Part shown: positions 9,444-60,218 of the stretch, one piece after another
How positions within the stretch are numbered: position 1 is the first letter of the stretch
Layout of the letters: each line of letters opens with the position of its first letter
Source: Alphaproteobacteria bacterium
GTDB lineage: Bacteria; Pseudomonadota; Alphaproteobacteria; Micavibrionales; UBA2020
Direction of reading: 5' to 3'
NCBI GenBank assembly: GCA_035437825.1
Contig: DAOMYX010000001.1
Span: 113,220-177,219 of the forward strand
DNA: 64,000 nucleotides
Translations under genes and position numbers: made by a program
The notes under the pieces: model-generated
Seen by the model: only the letters and a program-made list of their open reading frames with translations
Databases searched by the model: none
What the model was told of the DNA's origin: nothing

Positions 9444-9519
<76 letters not shown>

Positions 9520-11779: not shown

Positions 11780-12580
11780 TCAATGCAGGCCGGCGGCATT
11801 ATGCCCCGGCCTGTTTCTTTTTTTGATGGTTGCAGGCGTCATGACGCGGATAGCGGGGGCGATGCCGTTTTGAATGTCCTGATTGTCCAGCCTTTGGCGG
11901 TCGGCTTGCAACAGCGCCATGACCACATCGTCACGGCCGAAAGATTTTGCAAGGCTATAGGCACCGTCGCCGCCTGACGTTTTGCGCGACGGATCACTGC
12001 CTGCAGTGACAAGGGTTTTGAGGGACGAAAAATCCGGCGGGGTCAAGTCCGAGCGGAAACGTTTGACGGCTTTGGTCAGCGGTGTTTCACCGTTATTGCT
12101 TTCGGCGTGAATATCCGCGCCGCATTCTGCCAGCATCCACACAGACTGATGCGCGCCGACGCTTGCGGCATAGCAAAGAGGTGTCCAGCCGTCTTTATCG
12201 CGGGCATTCATGTCTGCCCCGCGCTGGAACAAAACCAAAAGGCATTGGTCGTTGTTATGATGGGCGGCGACATGCGTGCCGGTTTTATCGGCATCTTTGG
12301 CGCTGATAAGCTGCGGTTGGGCATCCAGTAGTTTTTTGAGCGCTTCGGCGTCCCCGAGACGCAGGGCGCGGAAATAGGCGGCTTTGGTGTCGTCGGGCGG
12401 GGGCGGTGCAGAATCCGGCGCGGGGGCGGCTGCGCGCCGGTCTGGCTGTCCCATATCGGGGCGGGCGGGGGGCGCAGCGGCGGCGGCCATATCACGGGCG
12501 TTCTGGCGGAACAGGTCGATGAGACCGCCAAATCCGAAGCCCCGTGTCTCTTTTCCGGCTTTTCCCTGATTTTGTGCCAT
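11780..12580 (-). CDS. Ankyrin-repeat protein with Pro/Ala-rich N-terminal region and basic C-terminal tail
   Basis: ANK repeats (GADMNARDKDGWTPLCYAASVGAHQSVWMLAECGADIHAESNNGETPLTKAV). No signal peptide. C-terminus is ...MTPATIKKRNRPGHNAAGLH. Start taken at ATG MAQNQGKAG. Confidence 0.8.
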   Translation of the reverse strand: MAQNQGKAGKETRGFGFGGLIDLFRQNARDMAAAAAPPARPDMGQPDRRAAAPAPDSAPPPPDDTKAAYFRALRLGDAEALKKLLDAQPQLISAKDADKTGTHVAAHHNNDQCLLVLFQRGADMNARDKDGWTPLCYAASVGAHQSVWMLAECGADIHAESNNGETPLTKAVKRFRSDLTPPDFSSLKTLVTAGSDPSRKTSGGDGAYSLAKSFGRDDVVMALLQADRQRLDNQDIQNGIAPAIRVMTPATIKKRNRPGHNAAGLH

Positions 12581-12785
12581 GTGCATCCTTATGTGACGTG
12601 TGGGGGTATAATAGCACCGCATTTAAGTTATGTCAATTTTTGAGCGCTATCTGGTCATGGTTAAGAAAAATCTTGACTCTGTCATGGCATAAGAATTATG
12701 TTGCCAACCATCTGAAAAGCCGCGCTTTTATGCCGCTATCCCGCTTTATCTAAAAATAAGCAATAATAACAAGGGAGTAATCTAC

Positions 12786-15749: not shown

Positions 15750-16322
15750 TTAATGGCGGCGGCGGATGGCGGGCAGCGATATCAACGGCACATCCTTCGC
15801 CGTGCCGTTGAGGCAGGCGGCGGGGCCTTCGGCTTTGTCGCGGTGTCTTTCGATGGTTTTGGCGAGCGCGTCATGGCCGCGCATCCGCGCGAGAACGGGG
15901 GCGTCATGCCCTTGCTCGCAGCTGGGGAAGGTATCCGCGCCACGCCAGAGCAAAGCTTCGGCAGCTTCTTCGGCATTTTGCCATGCGGCATACATCAGTG
16001 CGGTATAGCCGCGGCTGTTTTGCTTGTCGATGGTGGGGGCTGCCCCGTGCTGCAAAAGCAGTTTGACGATGTCGCTGCGCCGTGCCTGCGCGGCGGCCAT
16101 CAGCGGTGTGTCATCGGCGGCATAGGGCTTATCGTCCGGCTTGAATGGCTCCAGCCAGCAGGCGGCGCCGGCGCGGCTTGTGAGGGTTTCGGTGACTTCA
16201 GCCGTATTTCCGGCGCGGATAGCCTTGAAAAAGGCCTTGCGCTCCTCCGGTGTCGCGCCGGCGGTCTGGTCGAAAGCGGAAGATATGCCGTTTGCCTGTC
16301 CTGCGGTCACAGCCTGCACCAT
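15750..16322 (-). CDS. Ankyrin-repeat protein with basic C-terminal tail
   Basis: TPLMAAAQARRSDIVKLLLQHGAAPTIDKQNSRGYTALMYAAWQNAEEAAEALLWRGAD. No signal peptide. C-terminus is ...VPLISLPAIRRRH. Confidence 0.8.
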   Translation of the reverse strand: MVQAVTAGQANGISSAFDQTAGATPEERKAFFKAIRAGNTAEVTETLTSRAGAACWLEPFKPDDKPYAADDTPLMAAAQARRSDIVKLLLQHGAAPTIDKQNSRGYTALMYAAWQNAEEAAEALLWRGADTFPSCEQGHDAPVLARMRGHDALAKTIERHRDKAEGPAACLNGTAKDVPLISLPAIRRRH

Positions 16323-16527
16323 GTCGTTAAAAATTGAATTTTTTCATAATATTAAGGATTTTTCCTGCTGTCAACCCGCGCTTTGCCATGGGGGCGGAAA
16401 GGGGCATGTGCCTGAAATATGAACAGGTTTTTCCGAAAAACTGCTGGCAAAACGGCAGAGAATCCTTATGATGAGTGACCTAAATAATGACAATTTTTAT
16501 AAAGCCCACAATCCACGAGGATTTCCC

Positions 16528-19500
16528 ATGCGCCGTTCACGCTTTCTTGCCCTGACGAGTGTTTCCCTTGCTGCTGCGATGCTTCTGGCCACGACAGCGG
16601 TACAGGCAACGCAGCCCGCCGCGGTTCAGATGCTCGGCGTTTTGAAGCCGAAAGAGCAATGGAAAGTCGGCACGGTGGACAGCAGCGGCGCGCCTTATTG
16701 CGCCATGGTGGGCAAGTTCGACCAGGCCAGCACGCTGGCATTCGCGCGCAGTGCGGAAGGCTTCGGCTCCCTCGGTATCGAGTTCTATGACGACCTGTTC
16801 AAACCGGGCAAAAAATACGAAGTCACCCTGACCCTCGAAAACCTCGCCCCGCGCACATTCAGCGGGGAGGCAACGACGGCGCGCTCGCTGGTTTTGCAAA
16901 TCGGTGAAGACGATGCGCTCTATGATACTTTCAGCCGCAGCGAAACGTTGCGCGTCTCGACCTCTGCGATTGACGTGCGCTTCGCCATCAACAAATTCGA
17001 CAAGAAGTATAAAGAGCTTGTCACCTGCGCCACCGTTCTTGCGGGCCCGCAGGAGCAGGTAGAGCTGCCGCCCGCCGAAATGGCCGCAGCAGCCAAGGCA
17101 GAAGCCGAAGCCGCCGCCGCTGAAAAAACGGCCAGCGCCGAAAAACCGGCAGCACCGTTTACAAACTTTTTCCAAAGACTGCGCGCCAAGGCAGCGGGGC
17201 AGGAAGAGCCCGCAGCCACCCTTCGGCAGTATTCCGAAAGCGACATTGTCTGGAACGATGAAAAATCCGCCGCAAAAACCGCCGCGGCCGGCAAAAAAAA
17301 ATCTGACGACACCGCAGCCGTAACCCTGCCGCTGCCCAAACCGGGCACGCATAAGGGCGAAACGATTTTGGCGGCCTCCACCACGGCGGCGCCATCTGCT
17401 GTCGCAGCGCCTGCTATCAATGTGGATTCCGCCCCGCTGGCAGAAATGCCCGCGCCCGAAACAATGGATATGCCGCAGGAGCGTAAACTGCTCGCCTCCA
17501 TGGCGGTGACCGGTCATGCGGTCATGGCTGAAAACGTGGGCATGAGCGCGCGCGAGATGGAAAAAATCCAGGCCGCCAAGCTGGAGCGCGATATGGCGCG
17601 CAAGGAACAGGAAATCGCCACGCTGGCCGCCGAAACCACCAAGGCCGCACAGCAGCAGGTGCAGGAATCCGGCCGCCGTCAGGAGGCGATGCTGGTCGAG
17701 GCGAAAAACCTTCAACAGCAAATCGCCACGCTGGAAAAGTCTATGCTTGAAAAAGTGGCGGCGGAGAAAGCGGCTGAAAAATCCGCTGTTGTCGCTGCTG
17801 CTGCGCCTGTGGCAGAAGCTGCCGCCGCGGCTAAACTGGCTGATGATGCGCGCCTTGCAAAACAGCAAGCCGAAGAGCTTGCCAAAAAACAAGCCGATAT
17901 GGACAAGTTGATGGCCGCACGCGAAGCGGAAACCCGCAAGCTGGCCGAAGCCCTGAGCAAGACAGAGGCTGAATTCAACACCCGCGTCGCCACGCTGGAA
18001 AGCGAGCGCAGTGTTTTGCGCGGCCAGCTGGATACGGCTATCACCGAAAGCCGCACCGTCGTGCCTGCGCTTGAATCTGCGAAGCGCGAGGGGGATACGA
18101 AAATCCGTGCGCTCGAAGAACAGTTGGGGGCGGCCGAAGCGGCGCGTGCCTCGTTGCGCCAACAGCTGACGGATGCGGAAACCGCGAACAAGGAACTGGC
18201 TGAAAGCCTGAAGGCGCAGCAAATGGAACGCGCCCGTGCCGAAGAAGCCCTGCGCCGCGCCAGCGAGCTGGAAGCGCAGCTGGCAGCACAAACCCGTCAG
18301 GCAAAAGAGCTGGAACTGGCATTGGCCGCTGAAAAAGCAAAGCCGCCCGTGACGGTAGAAGTGCCCGTGGAAGTGCCTGCCAAGGCCGACCCGAAGCTGG
18401 CCGAAGAAAAGGCGCAGCTTGAATCGCGCCTGAACAACGCTGTCGCCGCGCGCGCGGCCGAGGCAAAACGCCTCGCCGAAGTCGAAGCTCTGCGCAAAGC
18501 AGAAGCAGAGCAACTGGCGAAGATGGAAAACGAACGTAAGGCTGAAGCAGAACGCCTTGCAAATCTGGAGCAGGAGCGTGTAGCAGCTGCCGCCCGCATG
18601 GCAAAGCTGGAGGCGGAGCGTAAGGCCGAAGCGGAGCGTATCGCCAAGCTGGATGCCGCGCGTCAGGCGGAGGAGGCTGCCAAACTGGCACAAATCGAAG
18701 CCGAGCGTATAGCAGAGGCAGAACGTATTGCGAAGCTTGAAGCCGAGCGTAAAGCGGAAGCAGAGCGCGTGGCCAAGCTGGAAGAAGAACGCAAGGCGGA
18801 AGCGCTGCGTATCGCCAAGATTGAAGCGGAGCGCAGAGCAGAAGCCGAACGCGTCGCCAAGATGGAAACCGAGCGTAAAGCGGAAGCAGAGCGCGTGGCC
18901 AAGCTCGAAGAGGAACGCAAGACGGAAGCGCTGCGTATCGCCAAGATTGAAGAAGAGCGTAAAGCAGAAGCCTTGCGCCTCGCCAAGCTGGAAGAAGAAC
19001 GCCGCCTGCAAAGCGTGCGTGCCGCCGAGCTGGCGCAGGAGCGTGAAGCTGCCCGTATGAAAGCGGACGAAGAAATCCGCCGCCTGCGTGAAGAAAAAGC
19101 GGCGCTGGAGCAAAAGCTGGCGCTTGAACAAAAACAAGCTGCCGCGCAAAAGCTGGCGCTGGAGCAAAAACAGGCCGCTGATAAATTTGCCGTGAAAGCG
19201 GCCGCGATGAAAACGGAGCAGGCGGTAGCAGCCTTGCCGGCAGTGACGCTGAAGCCTGCCGCACCTGCGCCCGTAGCCGCTGCGCGTGCCTTGCCGCCGC
19301 TTGAAAAGCGTGAAGTGGCCGCTGTGCCCGCCGTACCGCCGTCACCGGCTGTCGGGGCGCGTAGCCTGTCGCGTCTTGAGCCGGCAGCGGGTGATTCCGA
19401 CCTGACCTCGGGCGGTAACCGTGCCGAGGCTTTCCTTGAGGGCATCATGAAGCATCACCGCCCGCAAGGCACAGCCGCACCCAAAAACGCTGTGAAAACG

Positions 19501-20205
19501 CCCTCCGTGCCTGCGCCTCAGGCGGCGAAAGCTGTACCGCAGGCGGCTATGCCGTCTTCTGTCCGTCCGCAAGTTCCCGTTGTGGAAACGCCGCGTTTGC
19601 GCAATGCGCCTGCGGCTGCGGCGCCCACCGGACGCGCCGTTAGCCTTGAAACCCTGCTGGAGCAATCCGGCGTGCGCGGCGCGGTGTTTCAGCCGATGCA
19701 GCAATCGGGCGCGGAAGCTTCGCGCCAATGGTCTTTGGGTCGTTTGAGCGGTCTTTACGAACAAATGCCCGCCGCAGGCCAGCCCTTCGACCGTCTGACG
19801 CAGGATTATGTCGGGCGTTACCGCGACGATTGCCCGCAGCACCTGACGGTGAAAATGGGCAATCCCGAACAAACGCCCGCGGGTGTGGTTTCCAGCGGCA
19901 CGCTGTCTTGCGCGATGCCGGGCAATGCCTATGAAACCTCGATGTTGTTCGTGCAGTCGGGCAGCGGTTTTGCCGCGATTTTGCATTCCGGCAACCCGTC
20001 CGACGCAGCGCAGGTAAAATCGTTGGGAGATAATATTTTCTACACGCTGTCATCGTCGGCAGGGCTGTCGCCTTTACCCGCAGCAGCGGCAGCGTCCGCC
20101 GCGCCGCAAGCGCAGTATGATGCCCGCCGCACGGTCATGTCGCCGGAGCCGCCGGTTTCCGCTGCGCAGCCGTCTGGTGAATTCAATACGGTTGTTATCG
20201 AATAA
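16528..20205 (+). CDS. Very large secreted coiled-coil protein with conserved N- and C-terminal globular domains
   Basis: ATG at 16528 follows GAGGA. Signal peptide MRRSRFLALTSVSLAAAMLLATTAVQA. The central several hundred residues are A/E/K/R/L-rich heptad-like sequence, including a 14-aa repeat array. The C-terminal domain has two Cys. It is a paralogue of the next gene. Confidence 0.8.
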   Translation: MRRSRFLALTSVSLAAAMLLATTAVQATQPAAVQMLGVLKPKEQWKVGTVDSSGAPYCAMVGKFDQASTLAFARSAEGFGSLGIEFYDDLFKPGKKYEVTLTLENLAPRTFSGEATTARSLVLQIGEDDALYDTFSRSETLRVSTSAIDVRFAINKFDKKYKELVTCATVLAGPQEQVELPPAEMAAAAKAEAEAAAAEKTASAEKPAAPFTNFFQRLRAKAAGQEEPAATLRQYSESDIVWNDEKSAAKTAAAGKKKSDDTAAVTLPLPKPGTHKGETILAASTTAAPSAVAAPAINVDSAPLAEMPAPETMDMPQERKLLASMAVTGHAVMAENVGMSAREMEKIQAAKLERDMARKEQEIATLAAETTKAAQQQVQESGRRQEAMLVEAKNLQQQIATLEKSMLEKVAAEKAAEKSAVVAAAAPVAEAAAAAKLADDARLAKQQAEELAKKQADMDKLMAAREAETRKLAEALSKTEAEFNTRVATLESERSVLRGQLDTAITESRTVVPALESAKREGDTKIRALEEQLGAAEAARASLRQQLTDAETANKELAESLKAQQMERARAEEALRRASELEAQLAAQTRQAKELELALAAEKAKPPVTVEVPVEVPAKADPKLAEEKAQLESRLNNAVAARAAEAKRLAEVEALRKAEAEQLAKMENERKAEAERLANLEQERVAAAARMAKLEAERKAEAERIAKLDAARQAEEAAKLAQIEAERIAEAERIAKLEAERKAEAERVAKLEEERKAEALRIAKIEAERRAEAERVAKMETERKAEAERVAKLEEERKTEALRIAKIEEERKAEALRLAKLEEERRLQSVRAAELAQEREAARMKADEEIRRLREEKAALEQKLALEQKQAAAQKLALEQKQAADKFAVKAAAMKTEQAVAALPAVTLKPAAPAPVAAARALPPLEKREVAAVPAVPPSPAVGARSLSRLEPAAGDSDLTSGGNRAEAFLEGIMKHHRPQGTAAPKNAVKTPSVPAPQAAKAVPQAAMPSSVRPQVPVVETPRLRNAPAAAAPTGRAVSLETLLEQSGVRGAVFQPMQQSGAEASRQWSLGRLSGLYEQMPAAGQPFDRLTQDYVGRYRDDCPQHLTVKMGNPEQTPAGVVSSGTLSCAMPGNAYETSMLFVQSGSGFAAILHSGNPSDAAQVKSLGDNIFYTLSSSAGLSPLPAAAAASAAPQAQYDARRTVMSPEPPVSAAQPSGEFNTVVIE
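18460..19060 (+). repeat. In-frame 42-nt (14-aa) tandem repeat array inside the coiled-coil gene
   Basis: About 13 units of type ERKAEAERVAKLEE / ERKAEALRIAKIEE. Two roughly 90-nt stretches starting at 18745 and 18871 are near-identical (period 126 nt = 3 units). Confidence 0.85.
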
Positions 20206-47013: not shown

Positions 47014-47211
47014 AAATAAGCCCCTCTGGCCTTCGTCCCGGCATTTGGGTAAAATGCCTTATCGCAAGGCATTATAAAAAGAATCCCGAATTGCCGGGCC
47101 CGGACTGTCGGGGCGAGTGCGCATTCCAAAAGAAGCGCAACCAGAGCGAATAGCGTGTGTGTCTAGAACCTGTAAAACCGATTTTGTTTTCAGCACTTGA
47201 AGGACACGCAG

Positions 47212-48015
47212 ATGAGCAACGACAATCTTCCTCCTAATCCCGTGCCCGCAAACGGCACGCCGGATACACCCAAAAAATTCTTTGTGCGTTTTTCAAAAAT
47301 CGAAGACGAGCAGAAGGTTTTTGATTTTTATGACCTGAATACGCACAAAAACGTGCTGCAGCGTGAAAAAGACCTGATGAAAGGTCTGATTGACGACGGC
47401 GCGGTTGTGATTATCGAAGACGAGAAGGGCACGATTGTCGCTGCCAGCATTACCTATCCGCATAAAGAAAAAGACAGCGACGGGGTCGAACATGTGAAGT
47501 GGCAGGAAGTCGGCACAACGCGCATCGCGCTTAACGGCTATCCTGGTTTGTTCGACGCCATGATTACCATGCAGGTACTGCGCGCGTTTCTGGTGGAGCC
47601 GCCGGAGGAGCGTTTCGTTGCGCAAATGTTTACCGACCCCGTGCAGAAAATGGCTGGCAAGCTGGGCTGGCGCCGTTTGGACGAACAATCCGTTTCTCCG
47701 CATCTGGTCGAAAGCAAGGAAAAGATGGTACCGCCCGGAACGTCCGTGGGCACGGTCAACTGGTTCCACATGGGACGCGAGGGGTTGCCCGTCATGGCCG
47801 CATGGATGGTCAAGACGCTGGATAACCCTGTTTTGGAAAACAAGAAAACGGGCGAGAAAATCCAGCTTGATTTCAGCAAGTCCAGCTTCTTTAATATGTT
47901 CCAAGAGGAAATCAAGCATCTGGCCAAACGCGATTTCGGCTCGCCCGATGCGCCCGACATGCAAAAGGGTGTGCAGCAATCCCGCGACAAATGGCTCAAG
48001 AATTTTTTCCGCTAA
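47212..48015 (+). CDS. GNAT-like protein of unknown function, paralogue of 53196..53927
   Basis: KKFFVRFSKIEDEQKVFDFYD...GAVVIIEDEKGTIVAASITYP...EVGTTRIALNGYPGLFDAMI (R-x-x-x-x-G-x-x-G-L-F resembles GNAT motif A). Roughly half the first ~60 aligned residues are identical to the paralogue by eye. Confidence 0.65.
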   Translation: MSNDNLPPNPVPANGTPDTPKKFFVRFSKIEDEQKVFDFYDLNTHKNVLQREKDLMKGLIDDGAVVIIEDEKGTIVAASITYPHKEKDSDGVEHVKWQEVGTTRIALNGYPGLFDAMITMQVLRAFLVEPPEERFVAQMFTDPVQKMAGKLGWRRLDEQSVSPHLVESKEKMVPPGTSVGTVNWFHMGREGLPVMAAWMVKTLDNPVLENKKTGEKIQLDFSKSSFFNMFQEEIKHLAKRDFGSPDAPDMQKGVQQSRDKWLKNFFR

Positions 48016-51620: not shown

Positions 51621-52262
51621 CTAACGATTCAGGCCCGCATTTTTGGCGCGGCGTTTCAGCGCCGGCATGTGCAGCGGCGCAACGTCTTTTTCCAGCGGGA
51701 CGCCAGCGGCCAGTGCGGCATCAAACGCCGCCTTCGCCGCGCGGCGCTGTGTGCCGAGCGATTGGATATCATTTGCGATATGCGGCTTGCCGTTATCTAT
51801 GGCGAAATCCGCGGCGGTTTTTCCGTTCGGGCTTTTGATGTCGGTGCGCGCCCCCGCATTGACCAGCAGCGCCACAACGTCGCGCGCCCCCAGATTGGCC
51901 GCCCACATCAGGGGCGTCATGCCCTTGAAGCCCGTGTCGTCAAGGCGTGCTTTGTGTTTTATCAGCAGCGCGGCGGCGTCCGCGTCTTTGAGCAGTACCG
52001 ACATCATCAAGGCTGTCGCGCCGTTCTGGTTGCGTGCTTCGGTATTGGCGCCGGCCTCCAGCAGCGGGCGGATGGCGTCGCCGCAGTGGCTGGACGAACA
52101 GGCCACAAGCAGCGGCGTGCGTTTTTGAATGTCATCGCCTGTTTGCTCAAGGTCCGCACCTGCGTCAATCAGGCGTTTGATTTCGGCCATATCTGGCGCA
52201 GCGCCGCTTATTTCCTTCAGCAGCGCAAGTCCGTCGCGGATATGTGCTGCAAGGGTTCCCAT
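51621..52262 (-). CDS. Ankyrin-repeat protein with basic C-terminal tail
   Basis: Start taken at MGTLAAHIRDGL, whose ATG overlaps the stop of the upstream 66-aa ORF (TGATG). ANK repeats: RTPLLVACSSSHCGDAIRPLLEAGANTEARNQNGATALMMSV. C-terminus is ...APLHMPALKRRAKNAGLNR. Confidence 0.75.
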   Translation of the reverse strand: MGTLAAHIRDGLALLKEISGAAPDMAEIKRLIDAGADLEQTGDDIQKRTPLLVACSSSHCGDAIRPLLEAGANTEARNQNGATALMMSVLLKDADAAALLIKHKARLDDTGFKGMTPLMWAANLGARDVVALLVNAGARTDIKSPNGKTAADFAIDNGKPHIANDIQSLGTQRRAAKAAFDAALAAGVPLEKDVAPLHMPALKRRAKNAGLNR

Positions 52263-52462
52263 CAGCGCGCGGGACTTTCGCCGCCGCGGACGCGCTTTTT
52301 GATGGCGGGCGGCTGAAGTACGGCGATGCTGTGCTCTTCGCCATCGTTGTTTTTTGCAGGTGTTACCGCAACCGCTGCAGCTGGCGCGGATGGCGACGTT
52401 TTCTTGGGCGCAGGTGGAATGTAACCATCCCACATTTCTTTCAACTTGTATTTGCCCAGCAT
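52262..52462 (-). CDS. Small (66 aa) Pro/Ala-rich protein with basic C-terminal tail
   Basis: MLGKYKLKEMWDGYIPPAPKK...IAVLQPPAIKKRVRGGESPAR. AAGGA lies upstream of its ATG. It is coupled to the ankyrin gene downstream and sits 21 nt after the 87-aa ORF. Confidence 0.5.
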   Translation of the reverse strand: MLGKYKLKEMWDGYIPPAPKKTSPSAPAAAVAVTPAKNNDGEEHSIAVLQPPAIKKRVRGGESPAR

Positions 52463-52483: not shown

Positions 52484-52747
52484 TTATTTGGGGCCTTGCG
52501 GGCCGCGTTTTTTGACGTTGATGGGGGGCAGCAGGTTGATGTTTGCGGGTTCCTGCTGCTTCATTTTAAAATCGGCGGGCGCATGTTCGTTCCAGATTTC
52601 GCCTGTGGGGTCGATGCTTTTTTGCAGGCCGCGCAAACGGCTATGCGCTTCGGAACCGCGGCGCCAGACACTGTGGTCGTCGCTGTAGTCGTAGTACCAG
52701 TCATGCGATTTAAGCAGCTTGATATAATTTTCCTGTTCAGGCGTCAT
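52484..52747 (-). CDS. Small (87 aa) protein with basic C-terminal tail
   Basis: MTPEQENYIKLLKSHDWYYDYSDDHSVWRRGSEAHSRLRGLQKSIDPTGEIWNEH...NINLLPPINVKKRGPQGPK. GAAAGG lies upstream of its ATG, and codon usage is host-like. Confidence 0.55.
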   Translation of the reverse strand: MTPEQENYIKLLKSHDWYYDYSDDHSVWRRGSEAHSRLRGLQKSIDPTGEIWNEHAPADFKMKQQEPANINLLPPINVKKRGPQGPK

Positions 52748-53195: not shown

Positions 53196-53927
53196 ATGGC
53201 CAAGAAGCTCTTTGTCCGCTATGCCGAACCAGCCGATGAAAAGGCGGTTTTTGATTTTTATTCCAACAATGAACACGAATTCGTCGCCAAGCGCGAACCG
53301 GATGTCTGGCGCGAGCGTATCGCCTCCGGCGCTGTCACGCTGATTGAGGATGAAGACGGTAAAATCGTCGCCTCCGCCATTTCCTATCCCGTGCTGGTGA
53401 AGAACGAGCAGGGCGAGGAAGTGCACAAGTGGACGGAGCTTGGCTCGGTGCGCATCACGCAGGAAGGGCTCGGCCTTTTCAAAACGCTGCTGAGCGCGCA
53501 GGTTATGCAGGCTTATATGATGGAGCCGCCGGAAGACCGCTTTGCGATTGAAATTGTGATTGGCAATCAACGCTCCAAAAACGCATTCCTGAAACATGGT
53601 GCGGTGCCGTTTGATATTCCGAAGGATTTGCAGGATGCCGTCGGCTATTCCATTTCGCCCGACGATGCGGGCTTGCCGGTGGAATGGTTCCAGCTTTCGG
53701 TCGAGCACATGCCGGGTATTGCAAAAACGCTGCTGGATGCCGAAAAAAATCCGAAAATAAAAGACCGCACGACGGGCGAAGAATACGAACTGGATTTCAC
53801 CCGCTGCGCAGTCATGAAAAACCTGCGTCCCGCTCTTGAAAATCTGGCTGGCAGCGATTACGGTGATGCCAAAGTGCCTAATGAAAAGCACGGCATCAAA
53901 TCTTTCCGGGATAAATTCGCACCGTAA
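53196..53927 (+). CDS. GNAT-like protein of unknown function, paralogue of 47212..48015
   Basis: KKLFVRYAEPADEKAVFDFYS...GAVTLIEDEDGKIVASAISYP...ELGSVRITQEGLGLFKTLL. It shares the 16-nt string ggtttttgatttttat with the paralogue. Confidence 0.7.
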   Translation: MAKKLFVRYAEPADEKAVFDFYSNNEHEFVAKREPDVWRERIASGAVTLIEDEDGKIVASAISYPVLVKNEQGEEVHKWTELGSVRITQEGLGLFKTLLSAQVMQAYMMEPPEDRFAIEIVIGNQRSKNAFLKHGAVPFDIPKDLQDAVGYSISPDDAGLPVEWFQLSVEHMPGIAKTLLDAEKNPKIKDRTTGEEYELDFTRCAVMKNLRPALENLAGSDYGDAKVPNEKHGIKSFRDKFAP

Positions 53928-54604: not shown

Positions 54605-55522
54605 TTATTTGCGGCGTGCCGCACGCTTCTTTTCAGCTTCTACCGCGTAATCGCCCGTGCCCTTGTGGAATACTTTATCGGTATCCAGCAGGGTGCCTGC
54701 TTTATGCTCCGGCTTGTCTTTCAATTCGGCATAAAGCGGCGTGAAGTCGGCATAGGTGTCGTTGAACAGCTGCTCGAAACTGTCGATGACGAAATAGTTG
54801 TCCTGAAAATCGTCAATCTGGTAATGCGTTTGCAGCAGGCGCTTCACGTCAAATCCGATGCGGTGGGGCGATACGCTTTCAAGCGCGAAAACGGACTCCG
54901 TCGGCGATGACAAAATGCCCGCACCGTAAATGCGCAGGCCGTCTTTTTGCCGGATAAGCCCGAATTCGACCGTGTACCAGTAAAGCCGCGCGATTTTATG
55001 CGTCATGCCCATGCCGGCGGCTTTCAGCCCGCCCTTGCCGTATTCTTCCATGTATTTGGCGAAAGTGGGGTCGGCCAGTAGCGGCACATGGCCGAAGACG
55101 TCGTGGAATACGTCAGGCTCTTGAATGTAATCGAGGCTGTCGCGCGTGCGGATGAAATTTCCGGCCGGAAAGCGGCGGTTGGCCAGAAGCTCGAAAAACG
55201 GCTCGTCCGGAATAAGCCCTTCGACAGGTACCACCTGCCAGCCCGTGCGCTTCATCAAAATCGCGTTCACTTCGTCGAACGACGGCACGCGCTCCGCATC
55301 GATGCCGAGCGTTGACATGGAATCCATGAACAGGTCGATGGCGCGGCCTTTCAATATTTCCTGCTGGCGTTTGAACAAAATGCGCCAGACGTCGTTTTCT
55401 TCTTCTGTATAGATGTGCTGGGGCACGATAAAGAAATCAAGGTCGCCGCGCGTCCATCCATCGCCCGGATTATAGTGCTTTGCCGATGCAAGGCCGCGGT
55501 CTTCGGGGATGTTGTTGGTCAC
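54605..55522 (-). CDS. phhA: Phenylalanine 4-hydroxylase
   Basis: Iron ligands PDVFHDVFGHVPLL and LYWYTVEFGLI. GTG start overlaps the maiA stop (GTGA). Confidence 0.9.
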   Translation of the reverse strand: MTNNIPEDRGLASAKHYNPGDGWTRGDLDFFIVPQHIYTEEENDVWRILFKRQQEILKGRAIDLFMDSMSTLGIDAERVPSFDEVNAILMKRTGWQVVPVEGLIPDEPFFELLANRRFPAGNFIRTRDSLDYIQEPDVFHDVFGHVPLLADPTFAKYMEEYGKGGLKAAGMGMTHKIARLYWYTVEFGLIRQKDGLRIYGAGILSSPTESVFALESVSPHRIGFDVKRLLQTHYQIDDFQDNYFVIDSFEQLFNDTYADFTPLYAELKDKPEHKAGTLLDTDKVFHKGTGDYAVEAEKKRAARRK

Positions 55523-56208
55523 GACGCTTTTCCTTTCATGAAACTGGGACGCTGGTCATCGGGCGTATCGGGCTGGTTTTCGGGGCAGGACGCAACGAAA
55601 GCCGGCAAATCGGCGCAGGCCGCATCAATCGCGCTGAGCACAGGCCATGCCGCCATATCCATTTCATAGCGGCGGGCGTTGTAAACCTGCGGCACAAGGC
55701 ACATATCCGCCATGGTCGGCGCATCGCCGCAAACGAAGCTGCCTTTGTAAAAAGGGCTGCGGGTGATAAGGGCTTCAAGCGCGTCAAAACCCTGGCGTAT
55801 CCATTTCTGATACCATTCCATTTTTTGCGCCTGCGTGACGCCAAGGTCTGCTGTCAGGTGATTGAGGATTTTCAGGTTGTTGATGGGGTGAATGTCGGCA
55901 ACATTTACCAGCGAAACCTGCCGTACATACGCACGCTCTTCTGCGCCCTGCGGCAGCAAGGCGGGCGCGGGGAATTTTTCTTCAAGATATTCCATGATGG
56001 CCATGGATTGCGTCAGGATGAAATCGCCATCGACCAGAGTTGGCACCAGCGATTGCGGGTTCAGCGCCTTGTATTCCGGCTTGTGCTGTTCGCCGCCGTC
56101 GCGCACCAGATGCACGGGGATATATTCAAACGGAATGTTTTTGAAATGCAGCGCCAGCCGCGCGCGATAGGCGCAGGACGACCTGTAATAGCTATAGAGC
56201 TGCATCAT
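55519..56208 (-). CDS. maiA: Maleylacetoacetate isomerase (zeta-class GST)
   Basis: MMQLYSYYRSSCAYRARLAL (zeta-GST SSCxxRxRIAL motif) ... NPQSLVPTLVDGDFILTQSMAIMEYLEE. This is only the last ~229 codons of the 693-aa track ORF. Confidence 0.9.
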   Translation of the reverse strand: MMQLYSYYRSSCAYRARLALHFKNIPFEYIPVHLVRDGGEQHKPEYKALNPQSLVPTLVDGDFILTQSMAIMEYLEEKFPAPALLPQGAEERAYVRQVSLVNVADIHPINNLKILNHLTADLGVTQAQKMEWYQKWIRQGFDALEALITRSPFYKGSFVCGDAPTMADMCLVPQVYNARRYEMDMAAWPVLSAIDAACADLPAFVASCPENQPDTPDDQRPSFMKGKAS

Positions 56209-56341
56209 GGCGATGACCCCTGAATATCCTGATAAAACCGATGGTTGGATTTTATCGGGCGGCGGGCAGGACGGGCAAGTCTGTCCGCACTGCACAATTA
56301 CATAATACCACACTTTTGATGTAAGTTCATGATACCCTTGA

Positions 56342-56370
56342 TTGACAGGTTGGCGCGTTATGTCTAAATT
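56342..56370 (+). promoter_or_regulatory. Predicted promoter of the tandem ankyrin genes
   Basis: TTGACA - 17 nt - TAAATT, about 40 nt upstream of the ATG at 56413. Confidence 0.35.
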
Positions 56371-56412
56371 TTGATTTCTCATATTTATATCAACATTCAA
56401 TGCGCGGGCGTC

Positions 56413-57267
56413 ATGGGCTGGATAAAAACCCCTGAAGAAAAAGCGGCAGCACGTCAAAAACGTCTCGATAAGGGGCTGTTCAAGGACGATACGCGCAAGG
56501 TCATCGCCGCGCTTGATGCGGGCGCCAATCCGAACGCGCGCAACGAATACGGCTATAGCGCTATTTCCTATCAGGCCTCCAGCCGCCGCAATGAAGCGGT
56601 GAAGGTACTGCTGGCGCGCGGCGCAGACCCGAACGGCAAAACTGATAACGATTATTCCGCCCTGATGGCCGCGGCGTCGCATAATGATGTGGAGCTGGCA
56701 AAGCTTTTGTGCGACCACGGCGCGCATATTAATGCGCAAAGCCACGATGGCCGCACGCCGCTGCACCATGCCGCCTATTGGGGGCGTGGAAAAATCATCC
56801 AGTTCCTGCTGTCGCAGGGGGCGGATACCACATTGCGCGATGGGCGCATGAACAGCGCGGCCGATATCGCGGCCAAAGAAAACTATCCGGGCGTTGCGGC
56901 GCTGCTGCGCGGGGAATTGGACGAAGTGCCCAAAGAAGATGCTGCGCCGGCCGCCGGCGTATGGCATTTGACGGCGCCCGATGAAATTGCGCGTATTGAT
57001 GACAAGCCGGCTATCGGCTATCGCATTACCGAGATTTTTAACTTTGGTGCAGGGGTATATAACCGCATCGCGCGTAACCTTTCGACCGACCACGAAAGCC
57101 AGTCTATGCGGCTGTTCGATGAAATGCACGGCAGTCCGATATTGCAGCAGGCAGCAGATGCCTTTGTGCGTTTGGGCGGCGATGCTGAAAACGCTGCTGC
57201 CGCCCAATCTTTGACGGCCAAAAAACCCGCAGGCCTGACGCTGCACCCAAGCGGCAGGAGCGCCTGA
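56413..57267 (+). CDS. Ankyrin-repeat protein with conserved unknown C-terminal domain (tandem copy 1)
   Basis: ANK repeats: GANPNARNEYGYSAISYQASSRRNEAVKVLLARGADPNGKTDNDYSALMAAASHNDVELAKLLCDHGAHINAQSHDGRTPLHHAAYWG. C-domain: WHLTAPDEIARIDDKPAIGYRITEIFNFGAG... Confidence 0.8.
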   Translation: MGWIKTPEEKAAARQKRLDKGLFKDDTRKVIAALDAGANPNARNEYGYSAISYQASSRRNEAVKVLLARGADPNGKTDNDYSALMAAASHNDVELAKLLCDHGAHINAQSHDGRTPLHHAAYWGRGKIIQFLLSQGADTTLRDGRMNSAADIAAKENYPGVAALLRGELDEVPKEDAAPAAGVWHLTAPDEIARIDDKPAIGYRITEIFNFGAGVYNRIARNLSTDHESQSMRLFDEMHGSPILQQAADAFVRLGGDAENAAAAQSLTAKKPAGLTLHPSGRSA

Positions 57268-58094
57268 TGGGTATGTTTTTCGACAGCAAACAGGAAAAAC
57301 TCGACCGCCGTGTTTACAAGGCGATTGACGCCAAGAGCGTTGCCAAGCTGCAAGAGGCGCTCGACGCCGGCGGCGCGCTTGAAGCCAACGGCTATTGGGG
57401 CTGGGTTTATCATGCGGTGAATGCCCGTTTTGACGACGGCGTTTCGGTTCTGCTGGAACGCGGTGCCCCCGTGGATGCGCGCGGGCCTTACGGCTATACG
57501 CCGCTGCGTATCGCGGCCACCAGCGGTCACCGCGATATCGCCAATGTTTTGCTTGCTGCTGGGGCGGATATTCACGCCGTTGATGAAACGGGCTGGACAC
57601 CGCTGCACGGTGCCGCGCATGCGGGCAAGATGGACATGATTGTGTTCCTGCTGGAACATGGCGCGGATATGCAGGCGCGGGATAAACACATGAATACCCC
57701 TGCCGATATTGCGGCCAAGCAATACCCGCGCATTGCCGAATACCTGTGGGAAAAAATGGGCGTGGGGCAGGAAAAGCAGGAAACGGCGCCGCTGGAGCCC
57801 GGCTGGCATCTGACAGGCGATGATGAAATCGCCCATGTGTCCGACAAACCGGCGATTGGCTACCGCTTTACGGATGTTTTTAATTTCAGCGCCAAAATCC
57901 ACACACGGATTGCCGAAAACACCCGGACGCATGCCGAAAGCAGCAGCGTGAAAACATTCGCGGATTTGGAAGATAGCGCGCTGCTGGAGCAAGCTTTCGA
58001 AGCCTTCCGCGCACGCGGCGGCAAGGCGGATGATTATACGCTCGACAAGCCTAAAGCGCAGCCGGGGTTGCACCGGGGCGGCCCTCAGCCCTAA
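57267..58094 (+). CDS. Ankyrin-repeat protein with conserved unknown C-terminal domain (tandem copy 2)
   Basis: Its start overlaps the upstream stop (TGATG). ANK repeats: GYTPLRIAATSGHRDIANVLLAAGADIHAVDETGWTPLHGAAHAGKMDMIVFLLEHGADMQ. C-domain: WHLTGDDEIAHVSDKPAIGYRFTDVFNFSAK... Confidence 0.8.
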   Translation: MGMFFDSKQEKLDRRVYKAIDAKSVAKLQEALDAGGALEANGYWGWVYHAVNARFDDGVSVLLERGAPVDARGPYGYTPLRIAATSGHRDIANVLLAAGADIHAVDETGWTPLHGAAHAGKMDMIVFLLEHGADMQARDKHMNTPADIAAKQYPRIAEYLWEKMGVGQEKQETAPLEPGWHLTGDDEIAHVSDKPAIGYRFTDVFNFSAKIHTRIAENTRTHAESSSVKTFADLEDSALLEQAFEAFRARGGKADDYTLDKPKAQPGLHRGGPQP

Positions 58095-58115
58095 AATAAT
58101 AACCGGCGTTTTTTC

Positions 58116-59144
58116 TTACCCGCCATGTCCGCTGCGGCGTGCGGCGCGGCGTTCTGCCAATGACACATACTGGTATTGCGATACCTTTTGGTCAATCGCG
58201 CCGAATATCGATTTGCCGTTTGCATCCAGCATTTCGATTTTGACTGTTTCGCCGAACTTCATGAAGGGGGTTTTAAATTCCCCGTGTTCGACTTTTTCCA
58301 GCATGCGTTTTTCGACGATGCAGGAATGTCCTTTGCTGCGGTCAACGTTGGACACCGTGCCGGAGCCGATAATCGTCCCCGCGCAAAGCGGGCGGGTTTT
58401 GGCGGCATGGGCGATAAGCTGCGCGAAGTCGAAAACCATATCGACGCCTGCATCCGGCTCCCCGAATTTTTCGCCGTTCCAGTAGCTGAGCAGCGGCAGG
58501 TGCAACTTGTTGTCTTTCCACGCGGCGCCCAGCGTTTGCGGCGATACCGCAACAGGCGAAAACGCGCTTGAGGGTTTGGATTGCAAAAAGCCGAAACCCT
58601 TGGCCAGTTCCGGCTGCGCGATATAACGCAGCGTCACGTCGTTGACCAGCATGACCAGCTTGATGTGGCTGCCGGCATCCTCGGCCGTTGTGCCCATGGG
58701 TACGTCGTCGGTGATGACGGCGACTTCGCCTTCGAAATCGATGCCCCAGTCGTCCTGTGCGAAAACGATGTCATCCATTGGGCCGAGGAAGCTGTCGGAG
58801 CCGCCTTGGTACATCAGCGGGTCTGTCCAGAAACTCGGCGGCATTTCGGCACCGCGTGCTTTGCGTACCAGCTCGACGTGGTTCACATACGCGCTGCCAT
58901 CTGCCCATTGATAGGCGCGGGGCAGGGGCGATGCGCACTGTTTAGGGTCAAACGGTTGCGGCGCGGCCTTGCCGGTCTCAAGGTCTTTGCAAAGCTGTTC
59001 CAGCTGCAAATGGCAATCCGGCCAATGCTCCAGCGCGTATTGCAGCGTCGGGGCGATTTTTTCTGCCGATGTGGCCTTCGTCAGGTCGCCGCTGACCGCC
59101 ATCAGCCGCCCGTCGCGACCGTGTTTGTAGGAAGCGAGTTTCAT
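58116..59144 (-). CDS. Fumarylacetoacetate hydrolase family protein (probable FahA)
   Basis: 342 aa; ...WGIDFEGEVAVITDD...LVMLVNDVTLR...GTIIGSGTVSN.... FAH-fold motifs and position between hppD and maiA. Confidence 0.8.
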   Translation of the reverse strand: MKLASYKHGRDGRLMAVSGDLTKATSAEKIAPTLQYALEHWPDCHLQLEQLCKDLETGKAAPQPFDPKQCASPLPRAYQWADGSAYVNHVELVRKARGAEMPPSFWTDPLMYQGGSDSFLGPMDDIVFAQDDWGIDFEGEVAVITDDVPMGTTAEDAGSHIKLVMLVNDVTLRYIAQPELAKGFGFLQSKPSSAFSPVAVSPQTLGAAWKDNKLHLPLLSYWNGEKFGEPDAGVDMVFDFAQLIAHAAKTRPLCAGTIIGSGTVSNVDRSKGHSCIVEKRMLEKVEHGEFKTPFMKFGETVKIEMLDANGKSIFGAIDQKVSQYQYVSLAERRAARRSGHGG

Positions 59145-59162
59145 TTTTCTGTTCGTTTCTGC

Positions 59163-60218
59163 TTATGCTTTCAAAACGCCGCGGCGCACTTGATCGTCTT
59201 CCAGCGACTGGAACAGCGCCTTGAAGTTGCCTTCGCCGAAGCCTTCGTTGCCTTTACGCTGGATGATTTCATAGAAAATCGGGCCGATGGCGTCTTTGGT
59301 AAAGATTTGCAAAAGCAGCCCCTGGCCTTTGGTCGGCGCGCCGTCCACAAGGATGTTCAGGGATTGCATGCGGGCGAGGTCTTCGCCGTGGCCGGGCACC
59401 CGTTCATCCACGCGGGCGTAATAGGTGTCTTTGGTTTCCTGAAAGTCGATACCTTTGGCGTTCAGTTGTTCGACGGTGGCATAGATGTTGTCGGTGCCGA
59501 AGGCGATATGCTGGATGCCTTCGCCGTTATAACGCTTCAGGAATTCCTCAATCTGCGATTTGTCGTCGGAGGATTCGTTGATAGGAATGCGGATTTTGCC
59601 GCAGGGGCTGGTCATGGCCTTGGATTTCAGGCCGGTCAGCTTGCCTTCGATGTCGAAATAGCGGATTTCGCGGAAGTTGAACAAATCGGTATAAAAATTT
59701 GCCCATTTGTCCATGTTGCCGCGGTTGACGTTGTGCGTCAGGTGGTCGAGGTAGGTAAGGCCGACGCCTGCATTGGGCGCGGTGTCGGTAAAATTGAAAT
59801 CTGTCTGATAAATCGAACCCTTGTCGCCATAGACATCGACAAAGTACAGAACCGAACCGCCGATGCCGACGACGGCGGGGATTTTCAGCTCGCCTGCGCC
59901 GATGCTGCCTTCAAACGGAACGGCGCCTTTTTCAAGCGCACGGGCGTAGGCTTTTTGCGCATCCTTGACGCGGAAGGCCATGGCGCGCGCTGCACCGCCG
60001 TTGCGGTCGGCGGCATAGGCCATCGCTTCGGGCTCTTCGTTCAGGATGAAGTTGATATCGCCCTGTTGCCACAGCGTGACTTTTTTGGATTTATGCGTCG
60101 CGGTTTTTTTGAAGCCGAGGTTGGTGAACAAATCGACCAGTTCCTGCGGGTTCTTGTGGCAGTACTCCACGAATTCAAAACCGTCGGTGCCCATCGGGTT
60201 TTCAAACAAATCGGCCAT
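59163..60218 (-). CDS. hppD: 4-hydroxyphenylpyruvate dioxygenase
   Basis: 351 aa; FEFVEY...GEGIQHIAF...LLQIFTKDAIGPIFYEIIQRKGNEGFGEGNFKALFQSLE. Confidence 0.95.
   Translation of the reverse strand: MADLFENPMGTDGFEFVEYCHKNPQELVDLFTNLGFKKTATHKSKKVTLWQQGDINFILNEEPEAMAYAADRNGGAARAMAFRVKDAQKAYARALEKGAVPFEGSIGAGELKIPAVVGIGGSVLYFVDVYGDKGSIYQTDFNFTDTAPNAGVGLTYLDHLTHNVNRGNMDKWANFYTDLFNFREIRYFDIEGKLTGLKSKAMTSPCGKIRIPINESSDDKSQIEEFLKRYNGEGIQHIAFGTDNIYATVEQLNAKGIDFQETKDTYYARVDERVPGHGEDLARMQSLNILVDGAPTKGQGLLLQIFTKDAIGPIFYEIIQRKGNEGFGEGNFKALFQSLEDDQVRRGVLKA

Follow-up and report, generated by a model that had tools for sequence, protein, structure and literature searches.

Why do two ankyrin-repeat genes lie in the middle of a gene cluster for phenylalanine and tyrosine (Phe/Tyr) catabolism, and what is the C-terminal domain that their products share? 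The question is raised by a plus-strand gene pair at positions 56413-58094 of a 64,000-nt stretch of an alphaproteobacterial contig (DAOMYX010000001.1), which we refer to as the window and in which all coordinates are given. The ankyrin part of both proteins is ordinary; the C-terminal domain, hereafter the FNF domain, and the tail that follows it are the new element and, as judged by sequence comparison, constitute a family not described in any library searched. Nothing links the pair to Phe/Tyr catabolism: the family occupies three unrelated chromosomal sites, and the corresponding cluster of Micavibrio aeruginosavorus ARL-13 is intact without it. As to function, the reading that we favour, although tentatively, is that the proteins are variable ankyrin binders with a constant C-terminal docking or export module whose partner would be an export machinery.

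Gene 1 (56413..57267, plus strand) encodes 284 amino acids comprising ankyrin repeats, a linker, the FNF domain and a basic tail, and this architecture is repeated in gene 2 (57267..58094, plus strand; 275 amino acids). The start of gene 1 is likely the ATG at 56413 and not the TTG at 56371 listed by the open reading frame (ORF) finder, because the resulting N-terminus, MGWIKTPEEK, fits the family pattern MG[WFL][FI].T..EK. At the junction (57252..57269, plus strand), the two genes overlap by one base in the string TGATG, where the gene 1 stop TGA (57265-57267) runs into the gene 2 ATG (57267-57269); an AGGAG Shine-Dalgarno sequence within the end of gene 1, read directly from the sequence, is located 10 nt 5' of that ATG. 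The original prediction of tandem ankyrin paralogues with overlapping stop and start is borne out by these positions and by the BLASTP comparison of the two proteins (40% identity over 253 amino acids, E 7e-55). Their C-terminal 77 amino acids are 51% identical (tblastn E 2e-23), and tblastn revealed no further copy of the C-terminal domain within the window. By Pfam thresholds, both are classified as ankyrin-repeat proteins: the repeat region of gene 1 (56476..56922, plus strand; approximately residues 22-170, 4-5 repeats) matches Ank_2, Ank and Ank_4, and that of gene 2 (57324..57761, plus strand; approximately residues 20-165, likewise 4-5 repeats) matches Ank, Ank_4 and Ank_2, with Ank_2 values of 3.9e-30 and 104.7 bits for gene 1 and 5e-18 and 65.9 bits for gene 2 (cutoff 27.3) and Ank scores of 75.0 and 74.7 bits, respectively (cutoff 21.1). 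In the AlphaFold2 model, the ankyrin part of gene 1 consists of paired helices (predicted local distance difference test, pLDDT, 64-93), and a variable acidic/Pro linker joins the ankyrin part to the C-terminal domain. An Rfam scan in and around the pair returned no match (best E 0.82), and a terminator scan gave no more sites than shuffled sequences, with no candidate where gene 2 ends. The exact proteins of the pair occur in metagenome-assembled genomes (MAGs) from bioreactor sludge under the labels 'ankyrin repeat domain-containing protein' or 'hypothetical protein'; where a protein identical to gene 1 is annotated in MAGs, it is merely as an 'ankyrin repeat domain-containing protein'.

The FNF domain comprises ~80 amino acids; that of gene 1 (56953..57228, plus strand) contains W184 and the LGG motif and is modelled as five beta strands plus helices; it matches the family hidden Markov model (HMM) at 1e-33, and the domain of gene 2 (57795..58055, plus strand) matches at 5.6e-34. 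The basic tails follow at 57211..57264 in gene 1 (LTAKKPAGLTLHPSGRSA, the family tail motif region; isoelectric point, pI, of 11.2) and at 58041..58091 in gene 2 (LDKPKAQPGLHRGGPQP), both on the plus strand. The view that the shared domain belongs to no recognised family survived every library to which the C-terminal ~100 amino acids were compared. Pfam gave no family for either protein even at E<=10; NCBIfam gave none for gene 1 and a single match for gene 2 that is put down to chance (E 0.074; 12 bits, the cutoff being 489); PADLOC gave none; the best PHROGs match had an E-value of 0.057; and the best matches among PDB sequences had E-values of 0.55 (phmmer) and 0.91 (105-sequence profile). 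A word-indexed protein search is insensitive here, as the C-terminal fragment found no match, not even itself, and the 105-sequence profile found three. In an exhaustive HMMER search, a profile of the two domains was compared with 1.84 billion cluster representatives, of which 479 matched at E<=1e-3 and 173 at E<=1e-10.

The architecture and positional counts that follow refer to the best 150 of these 479 representatives. In all 150, 0-29 residues (median 12) separate the end of the domain from the C-terminus, and in 139 the protein contains ankyrin repeats and no other Pfam domain, the remainder being mostly short fragments. The search for fusions of the domain to other repeat types, suggested by the original prediction, found none in this set. 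The domain consensus is W.L...DEVA.V..K..IGYRLTEIFNF..R.YT.IA.N..T.AESQ....FDE..D...L..A...L..LGG., in which W6, F31 and N32 are conserved in 100% of the sequences, T28 in 97%, N44 in 95% and E50 in 93%; the second F of FNF, A69, T, N, E, GG and Y are each conserved in at least 90%. A stretch of 8-14 variable residues connects LGG with a conserved tail of the form hydrophobic-x-K-[PK]-x-L-x-x-P-G (K92, 91%), which is basic (pI 10-11), rich in Pro and Gly and located at the very C-terminus. The N-termini of the family are hydrophilic, and no signal peptide was found in them. An N-myristoylation reading of the MGxxxT/S N-terminus was rejected, as other members frequently have S, K, R or P at position 2.

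Does this conserved segment fold on its own? AlphaFold supplied with a 105-sequence alignment returned a fold in which five antiparallel strands precede two to three helices, with a pLDDT of 90.9, a predicted template modelling score (pTM) of 0.78 and agreement across five models, so that the C-terminal domain is, according to this confident model, an independently folding unit. From a single full-length sequence, AlphaFold modelled the ankyrin part and left the C-terminus at pLDDT <50. A known fold was to be accepted at a significant E-value and a template modelling (TM) score >0.5; in the Foldseek comparison of the domain model with PDB and BFVD, as proposed in the original prediction, no significant match was found, the best PDB hit being a divergent polo-box at E 0.13 and TM 0.45. 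No enzyme-like or DNA-binding signature was detected in the domain by Pfam, NCBIfam or the pattern of conservation. A catalytic role for the conserved Y/T/N/N/E/S residues was considered; the domain is small and has no known catalytic motif, and hence a binding role seems more likely.

Another important question is how widely the family is distributed and whether it is tied to the catabolic cluster. A pattern-based scan of one genome per GTDB species yielded 83 confirmed stretches, which are distributed over 77 loci of about 30 assemblies; these assemblies are without exception MAGs and are labelled Micavibrio sp., Alphaproteobacteria, Rhodospirillaceae, Bdellovibrionales and, in one case, 'Patescibacteria'. 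An HMM search of the loci gave 2-10 family copies per assembly, and no relatives were found on IMG/VR viral contigs. The arrays are located at three conserved sites. At site A (26 assemblies plus the window), 2-4 family genes on the plus strand lie between phhA(-), in some cases with maiA(-), and FAH(-), HPPD(-) and MTHFR(+). At site B (15 loci), 1-2 family genes lie between an acyl-CoA dehydrogenase gene(-) and glyA(+), and at site C (24 loci), 1-4 family genes lie between cpoB-tilS-ftsH and glmM-NAD kinase, on a single strand throughout. The best cross-genome match of a C-terminal domain falls at its own site type in 71 of 72 cases for A, 17 of 17 for B and 46 of 48 for C; the three site-specific subfamilies are therefore old and vertically inherited. 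About 55 of the 73 array junctions measure -4, -1 or 0 to +6 nt, and the gene overlap in the window is thus a trait of the family. One assembly, DASPMW01 (loci L028, L043 and L053; 'Patescibacteria group bacterium'), shares the three sites and their flanking genes with the Micavibrio-like assemblies, so that an erroneous taxonomic label or a contaminated bin is probable.

The flanking genes in the window had been named phhA, maiA, an FAH-family gene and hppD, and these names proved sound. The phhA gene (phenylalanine 4-monooxygenase; 54605..55522, minus strand; TIGR01267, 337 bits, cutoff 265), maiA (maleylacetoacetate isomerase; 55519..56208, minus strand; TIGR01262, 273 bits, cutoff 171) and hppD (4-hydroxyphenylpyruvate dioxygenase; 59163..60218, minus strand; TIGR01263, 398 bits, cutoff 277) pass their NCBIfam cutoffs, and the fourth gene (58116..59144, minus strand) is assigned to FAA_hydrolase at the family level only. 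The pair is divergent from maiA across a ~200-bp intergenic region, and gene 2 is convergent with the FAA_hydrolase-family gene, with 21 nt between the stops. No hmgA (homogentisate 1,2-dioxygenase) is present in the catabolic cluster of the window (54605-60218); in ARL-13, hmgA is located away from the cluster as GMV_1404 (PMC3189940).

The comparison with M. aeruginosavorus ARL-13 shows what the cluster looks like without the pair. According to the published gene table, all three family sites are empty in this strain (PMC3189940): at the counterpart of site A, GMV_268 (HPPD), 269 (FAA hydrolase), 270 (maiA) and 271 (phhA) are consecutive (supplementary file 4); at that of site C, 518 (ybgF), 519 (tilS), 520 (hflB) and 521 (glmM) are consecutive; and at that of site B, nothing but a 207-nt ORF and rpiB lies between the genes for glutaryl-CoA dehydrogenase (984) and SHMT (987). 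No gene is called ankyrin in the supplementary gene files of the strain (PMC3189940). No M. aeruginosavorus record appeared among the matches of the genome scan, which, the scan being pattern-based, is supportive and not proof. On the basis of gene order, then, the pair is an insertion relative to the ARL-13 cluster, but an ancient and vertically inherited one. The site-A arrangement extends to genomes in which the identity of FAH and PhhA to their window counterparts is as low as 68-75%.

The insertion of an accessory module into a metabolic operon, which the original prediction had suggested, was thus correct in that the pair interrupts a cluster contiguous in ARL-13. A recent or mobile module is not supported, given the flank-like base composition, the lack of a nearby tRNA or flanking repeats and the preservation of the arrangement in 26 assemblies. 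The orientation of the pair, opposite to that of the cluster, and the relatively AT-rich upstream spacer (GC content 0.50) would suit a recently acquired horizontal island, and a fault of annotation or assembly might also be imagined; however, the GC content of the genes (0.57-0.61) equals that of the flanks, no integrase or flanking repeats were found at the pair, no tRNA is near it (the only one in the window is at 9444), and the viral contigs yielded no relatives. The identical locus is present in four independent assemblies, and orthology is site-specific across ~30 species. In view of this synteny, which contradicts them, we regard both the island and the artefact as having a negligible probability.

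Could the pair instead be kept between phhA-maiA and fah-hppD by an accessory or regulatory role in Phe/Tyr catabolism? Such a role could be read from the conserved position beside phhA and from the divergent intergenic region common to the pair and maiA. The original prediction had held that a shared gene order in relatives, combined with a conserved metabolic role of these genes, would speak against its own reading of the pair as an inserted module; the gene order is indeed shared, while the metabolic role has no support, because the family is also found at two unrelated housekeeping sites and the complete, contiguous ARL-13 cluster lacks it. Moreover, the whole site-A neighbourhood is collinear, orf243, DUF179, MTHFR and FAD oxidoreductase being as syntenic as the pathway genes, and pathway linkage is therefore not evidence of shared function. 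In some genomes, the array remains beside phhA where maiA or FAH-HPPD is gone from the site, and the domain itself lacks the signatures expected of an enzyme or a DNA-binding protein. A catabolic role is thus very improbable, and the position inside the cluster would be historical and not functional. At site-A loci, a 243-amino-acid protein without a Pfam or NCBIfam match (53196-53927, plus strand) always accompanies the DUF179 gene upstream of phhA; this protein has a paralogue in the window at 47197-48015 (plus strand).

The arrays themselves change more quickly than their surroundings. Between the window and locus L010, the flanking FAH, PhhA and HPPD proteins are 88%, 88% and 95% identical, while the orthologous family genes are 55-78% identical, and site-A arrays contain between 2 and 4 copies. 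Two-gene arrays are found in the window and in loci L008 and L009. When the three-gene arrays of L010, L011 and L012 are compared with the window, the ankyrin part of window gene 1 has its best match in their gene 1 (55-60%) and the C-terminal domain of window gene 1 in their gene 2 (78-80%); window gene 2 resembles their gene 3 most over its whole length. Window gene 1 is therefore chimeric, combining the repeats of gene 1 with the C-terminal domain of gene 2, and the two-gene array looks like the product of an unequal crossover. Such comparisons indicate that tandem duplication and unequal recombination drive the evolution of the arrays, which proceeds more rapidly than that of the neighbouring genes.

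A separate promoter for the pair had also been proposed, namely, the sigma-70-like sequence TTGACA-N17-TAAATT (56342..56370, plus strand), which is located 43 nt 5' of the gene 1 ATG and matches the consensus at 10 of 12 positions. By itself, the promoter scan is not significant (2 sites vs 2.1 expected), and the proposal is upheld by conservation: the -35/-10 block is kept in orthologous loci, while the surrounding intergenic sequence diverges. The window shares the string TTGACAG...TTATGTCTAAATTTTGATTTCTCATATT with loci L008, L009, L010 and L012, and at site A, even distant orthologues retain the TTGACA -35 element and the TTATGnnTAAA(T/C)T -10 region seen in the window, TTGAC-N-TTATGnnTAAA being found again in them. 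Each of the three sites has its own conserved sigma-70-like promoter. In a comparison of the 56342-56400 region with its counterparts in L008-L032, a 29-nt block, TTATGTCTAAATTTTGATTTCTCATATTT, is identical or nearly identical in the window, L008, L009, L010 and L012; in distant orthologues, a second box, CTATGT(T/C/A)AAT, lies ~20 nt downstream of the first TATG..TAAA box. These additional conserved blocks could represent an operator or a 5' leader element. The site-B arrays carry the sequence TCGTATGTAAAATAC.

What, then, could such proteins do? In the mechanism that we favour, the ankyrin solenoid would be the variable, target-binding part, and the FNF domain with its tail would be the constant module that docks all members onto one common partner, most likely an export or translocation machinery, the proteins thereby acting as effectors delivered to another cell, either a prey bacterium or a eukaryotic host. 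An export partner is favoured because the domain is strictly C-terminal, the tail is basic, the turnover of the family is rapid and the window is rich in ankyrin genes with basic tails. The C-terminal domain and positively charged tail would be used for export in a manner like that of the Bartonella Bep effectors, in which a BID domain and a positively charged tail form a bipartite signal for VirB/VirD4 type IV secretion. The two families are alike in having tandem paralogues, a variable N-terminal part, a constant C-terminal domain of ~100 amino acids, a basic tail and no signal peptide. In contrast, BID is an all-helical bundle and the FNF domain is predicted to consist of five beta strands plus helices, and the N-terminal parts of Beps bear FIC or phosphotyrosine motifs where the FNF family has ankyrin repeats. 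Of the Bep-type features, the basic tail is present in the FNF family; a BID domain was not found in the C-terminal region by Pfam, and the model there is beta-rich.

A second comparison is offered by the ankyrin effectors of intracellular bacteria (Legionella Ank/Leg, Anaplasma AnkA and Ehrlichia Ank200), whose C-terminal regions carry a type IV or type I export signal and which are likewise bacterial ankyrin proteins without a signal peptide, often in multiple copies. Unlike the proteins studied here, they have no FNF domain, and the hosts of the FNF family are uncultured Micavibrio-like bacteria. The NCBIfam equivalogs AnkY, AnkH, AnkG, AnkX, AnkF, AnkI and AnkC scored 14-63 bits against cutoffs of 450-1400, and matched through the ankyrin repeats only. 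Type I (RTX-type) substrates are marked by Ca-binding nonapeptide repeats or by an acidic protein with a non-basic C-terminal signal, frequently encoded beside ABC/MFP/TolC genes. Such features were not found: there is no HemolysinCabind or other Pfam match, the tails are basic, and no transporter genes are present at the three sites.

Several observations weigh against export. The C-terminal signals known for type I and type IV secretion do not take the form of compact beta domains, and K, P and G are reported to be depleted in type I signals. The contrast in tail charge with the background is modest, a net charge of at least +2 being found in 75% of members vs 45% of the housekeeping proteins nearby. 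None of the three sites has a secretion-system gene next to the arrays, and a literature search turned up no experiments on any family member. Intracellular hetero-oligomers would explain the tight coupling of the paralogues just as well. ARL-13, the sole sequenced cultured relative, possesses type I and type II secretion but neither type III nor type IV (PMC3189940); since it also lacks the family, its secretion inventory cuts both ways.

In an intracellular alternative, the proteins would be adaptors or scaffolds whose ankyrins recruit clients and whose C-terminal module docks on a cytoplasmic machine, such as a protease like FtsH, or mediates hetero-oligomers of the paralogues. The absence of a signal peptide and the neighbourhoods free of secretion genes are in line with this idea, as are the site-C arrays, which in 23 loci lie directly 3' of ftsH on the matching strand, and the overlapping (-4, -1) or nearly touching junctions, which would be expected for stoichiometric co-production. 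Ankyrin repeats combined with a constant C-terminal adaptor also follow the logic of the eukaryotic ASB/SOCS-box and poxvirus ANK/PRANC proteins, large paralogous families in which variable ankyrins bind the target; the PRANC/F-box and SOCS box, however, are short helical elements that recruit ubiquitin ligases, whereas the FNF domain is beta-rich, bacterial and without a Pfam match. Against an adaptor, the three sites have no functional neighbour in common, ftsH and glmM are contiguous without the family in M. aeruginosavorus, and rapid divergence and copy-number turnover are less expected of housekeeping adaptors. We consider the adaptor the main rival, only slightly less probable than export.

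Since the lineage is labelled Micavibrio-like, self-protection of a predator should also be weighed, i.e., ankyrin proteins that bind and inhibit the cell's own lytic enzymes. A precedent is Bdellovibrio Bd3460, an ankyrin self-protection protein of a bacterial predator (PMC4686830). The resemblance to the FNF family lies in the ankyrin repeats and in the kinship of Micavibrio-like hosts with an obligate predator, and multiple fast-evolving paralogues would also suit immunity. Bd3460 is said to be exported by a signal peptide, to be encoded beside the enzyme that it inhibits, a DD-endopeptidase, and to have no additional C-terminal domain. None of these features is found in the FNF family; no hydrolase or toxin gene adjoins the three sites, each of which is devoid of the family in the cultured predator M. 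aeruginosavorus. Immunity is therefore an unlikely explanation.

Returning to the exported binders, a further and bolder extension is that the FNF domain and the K-[PK]-x-L-x-x-P-G tail form an unrecognised folded C-terminal export or translocation signal which, together with tails of a second, KKR type, would define an effector repertoire; we rate this as rather unlikely. The second type of tail occurs elsewhere in the window, in which the six ankyrin genes represent a very high density for a genome of ~2.5 Mb. Besides the pair, there are four ankyrin genes, and three of them, along with two small proteins without a Pfam match, end in a P-[PA]-x-[IL]-KKR tail. These five proteins with L-x-P-[PA]-x-[IL]-K-K-R-type tails are encoded on the minus strand at 11780-12622, 15750-16322, 51621-52433, 52262-52462 and 52484-52747, and the tails read TPATIKKRNRPG, LPAIRRRH, MPALKRRAKNAG, PPAIKKRVRGG and PPINVKKRGPQG. 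The KKR-type tail is kept in the L009-L012 orthologues, where the residues upstream of it diverge. In sequence, it resembles a classical nuclear localisation signal (NLS) or a basic secretion tail, and it may be a signal of the same kind as the tail of the FNF family. In the segment 50733-52747 (minus strand), a same-strand run comprises an 87-amino-acid ORF, a 66-amino-acid ORF and two ankyrin genes (213/270 and 226 amino acids) without an FNF domain. A 1245-amino-acid protein at 16468-20205 (plus strand) has a signal-peptide-like N-terminus, an Ala/Glu/Lys-rich coiled coil and no Pfam match; its long coiled-coil region contains a tandem series of about a dozen AERIAKLEAERKAE-type repeats.

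The literature search found no paper on the FNF family and none linking Micavibrio or Micavibrionales to it, and, to the extent of that search, there seems to be no earlier report of the strict partnership with ankyrin repeats, of the three array sites or of the confinement to uncultured Micavibrio-like genomes. At a minimum, the databases gain a new domain family together with a structural model of high confidence. A misreading to which the locus invites is also corrected, as the pair is neither part of Phe/Tyr degradation nor a recent arrival in the pathway. Micavibrio-like bacteria are common in sludge, lakes and groundwater and are candidate 'living antibiotics', and their action on other cells is poorly understood; a fast-evolving family with 2-10 copies in genomes of ~2-3 Mb, absent in the cultured species and combining a eukaryote-like binding scaffold with a constant domain that current databases leave unannotated, is a plausible handle on the interaction biology of the clade. 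If the FNF domain and the two kinds of tail do mark an effector repertoire, the receiving cells would be prey bacteria or, in view of the ankyrin repeats and the NLS-like tails, eukaryotic hosts, and the lifestyle of this clade would differ from that of the cultured epibiotic predator.

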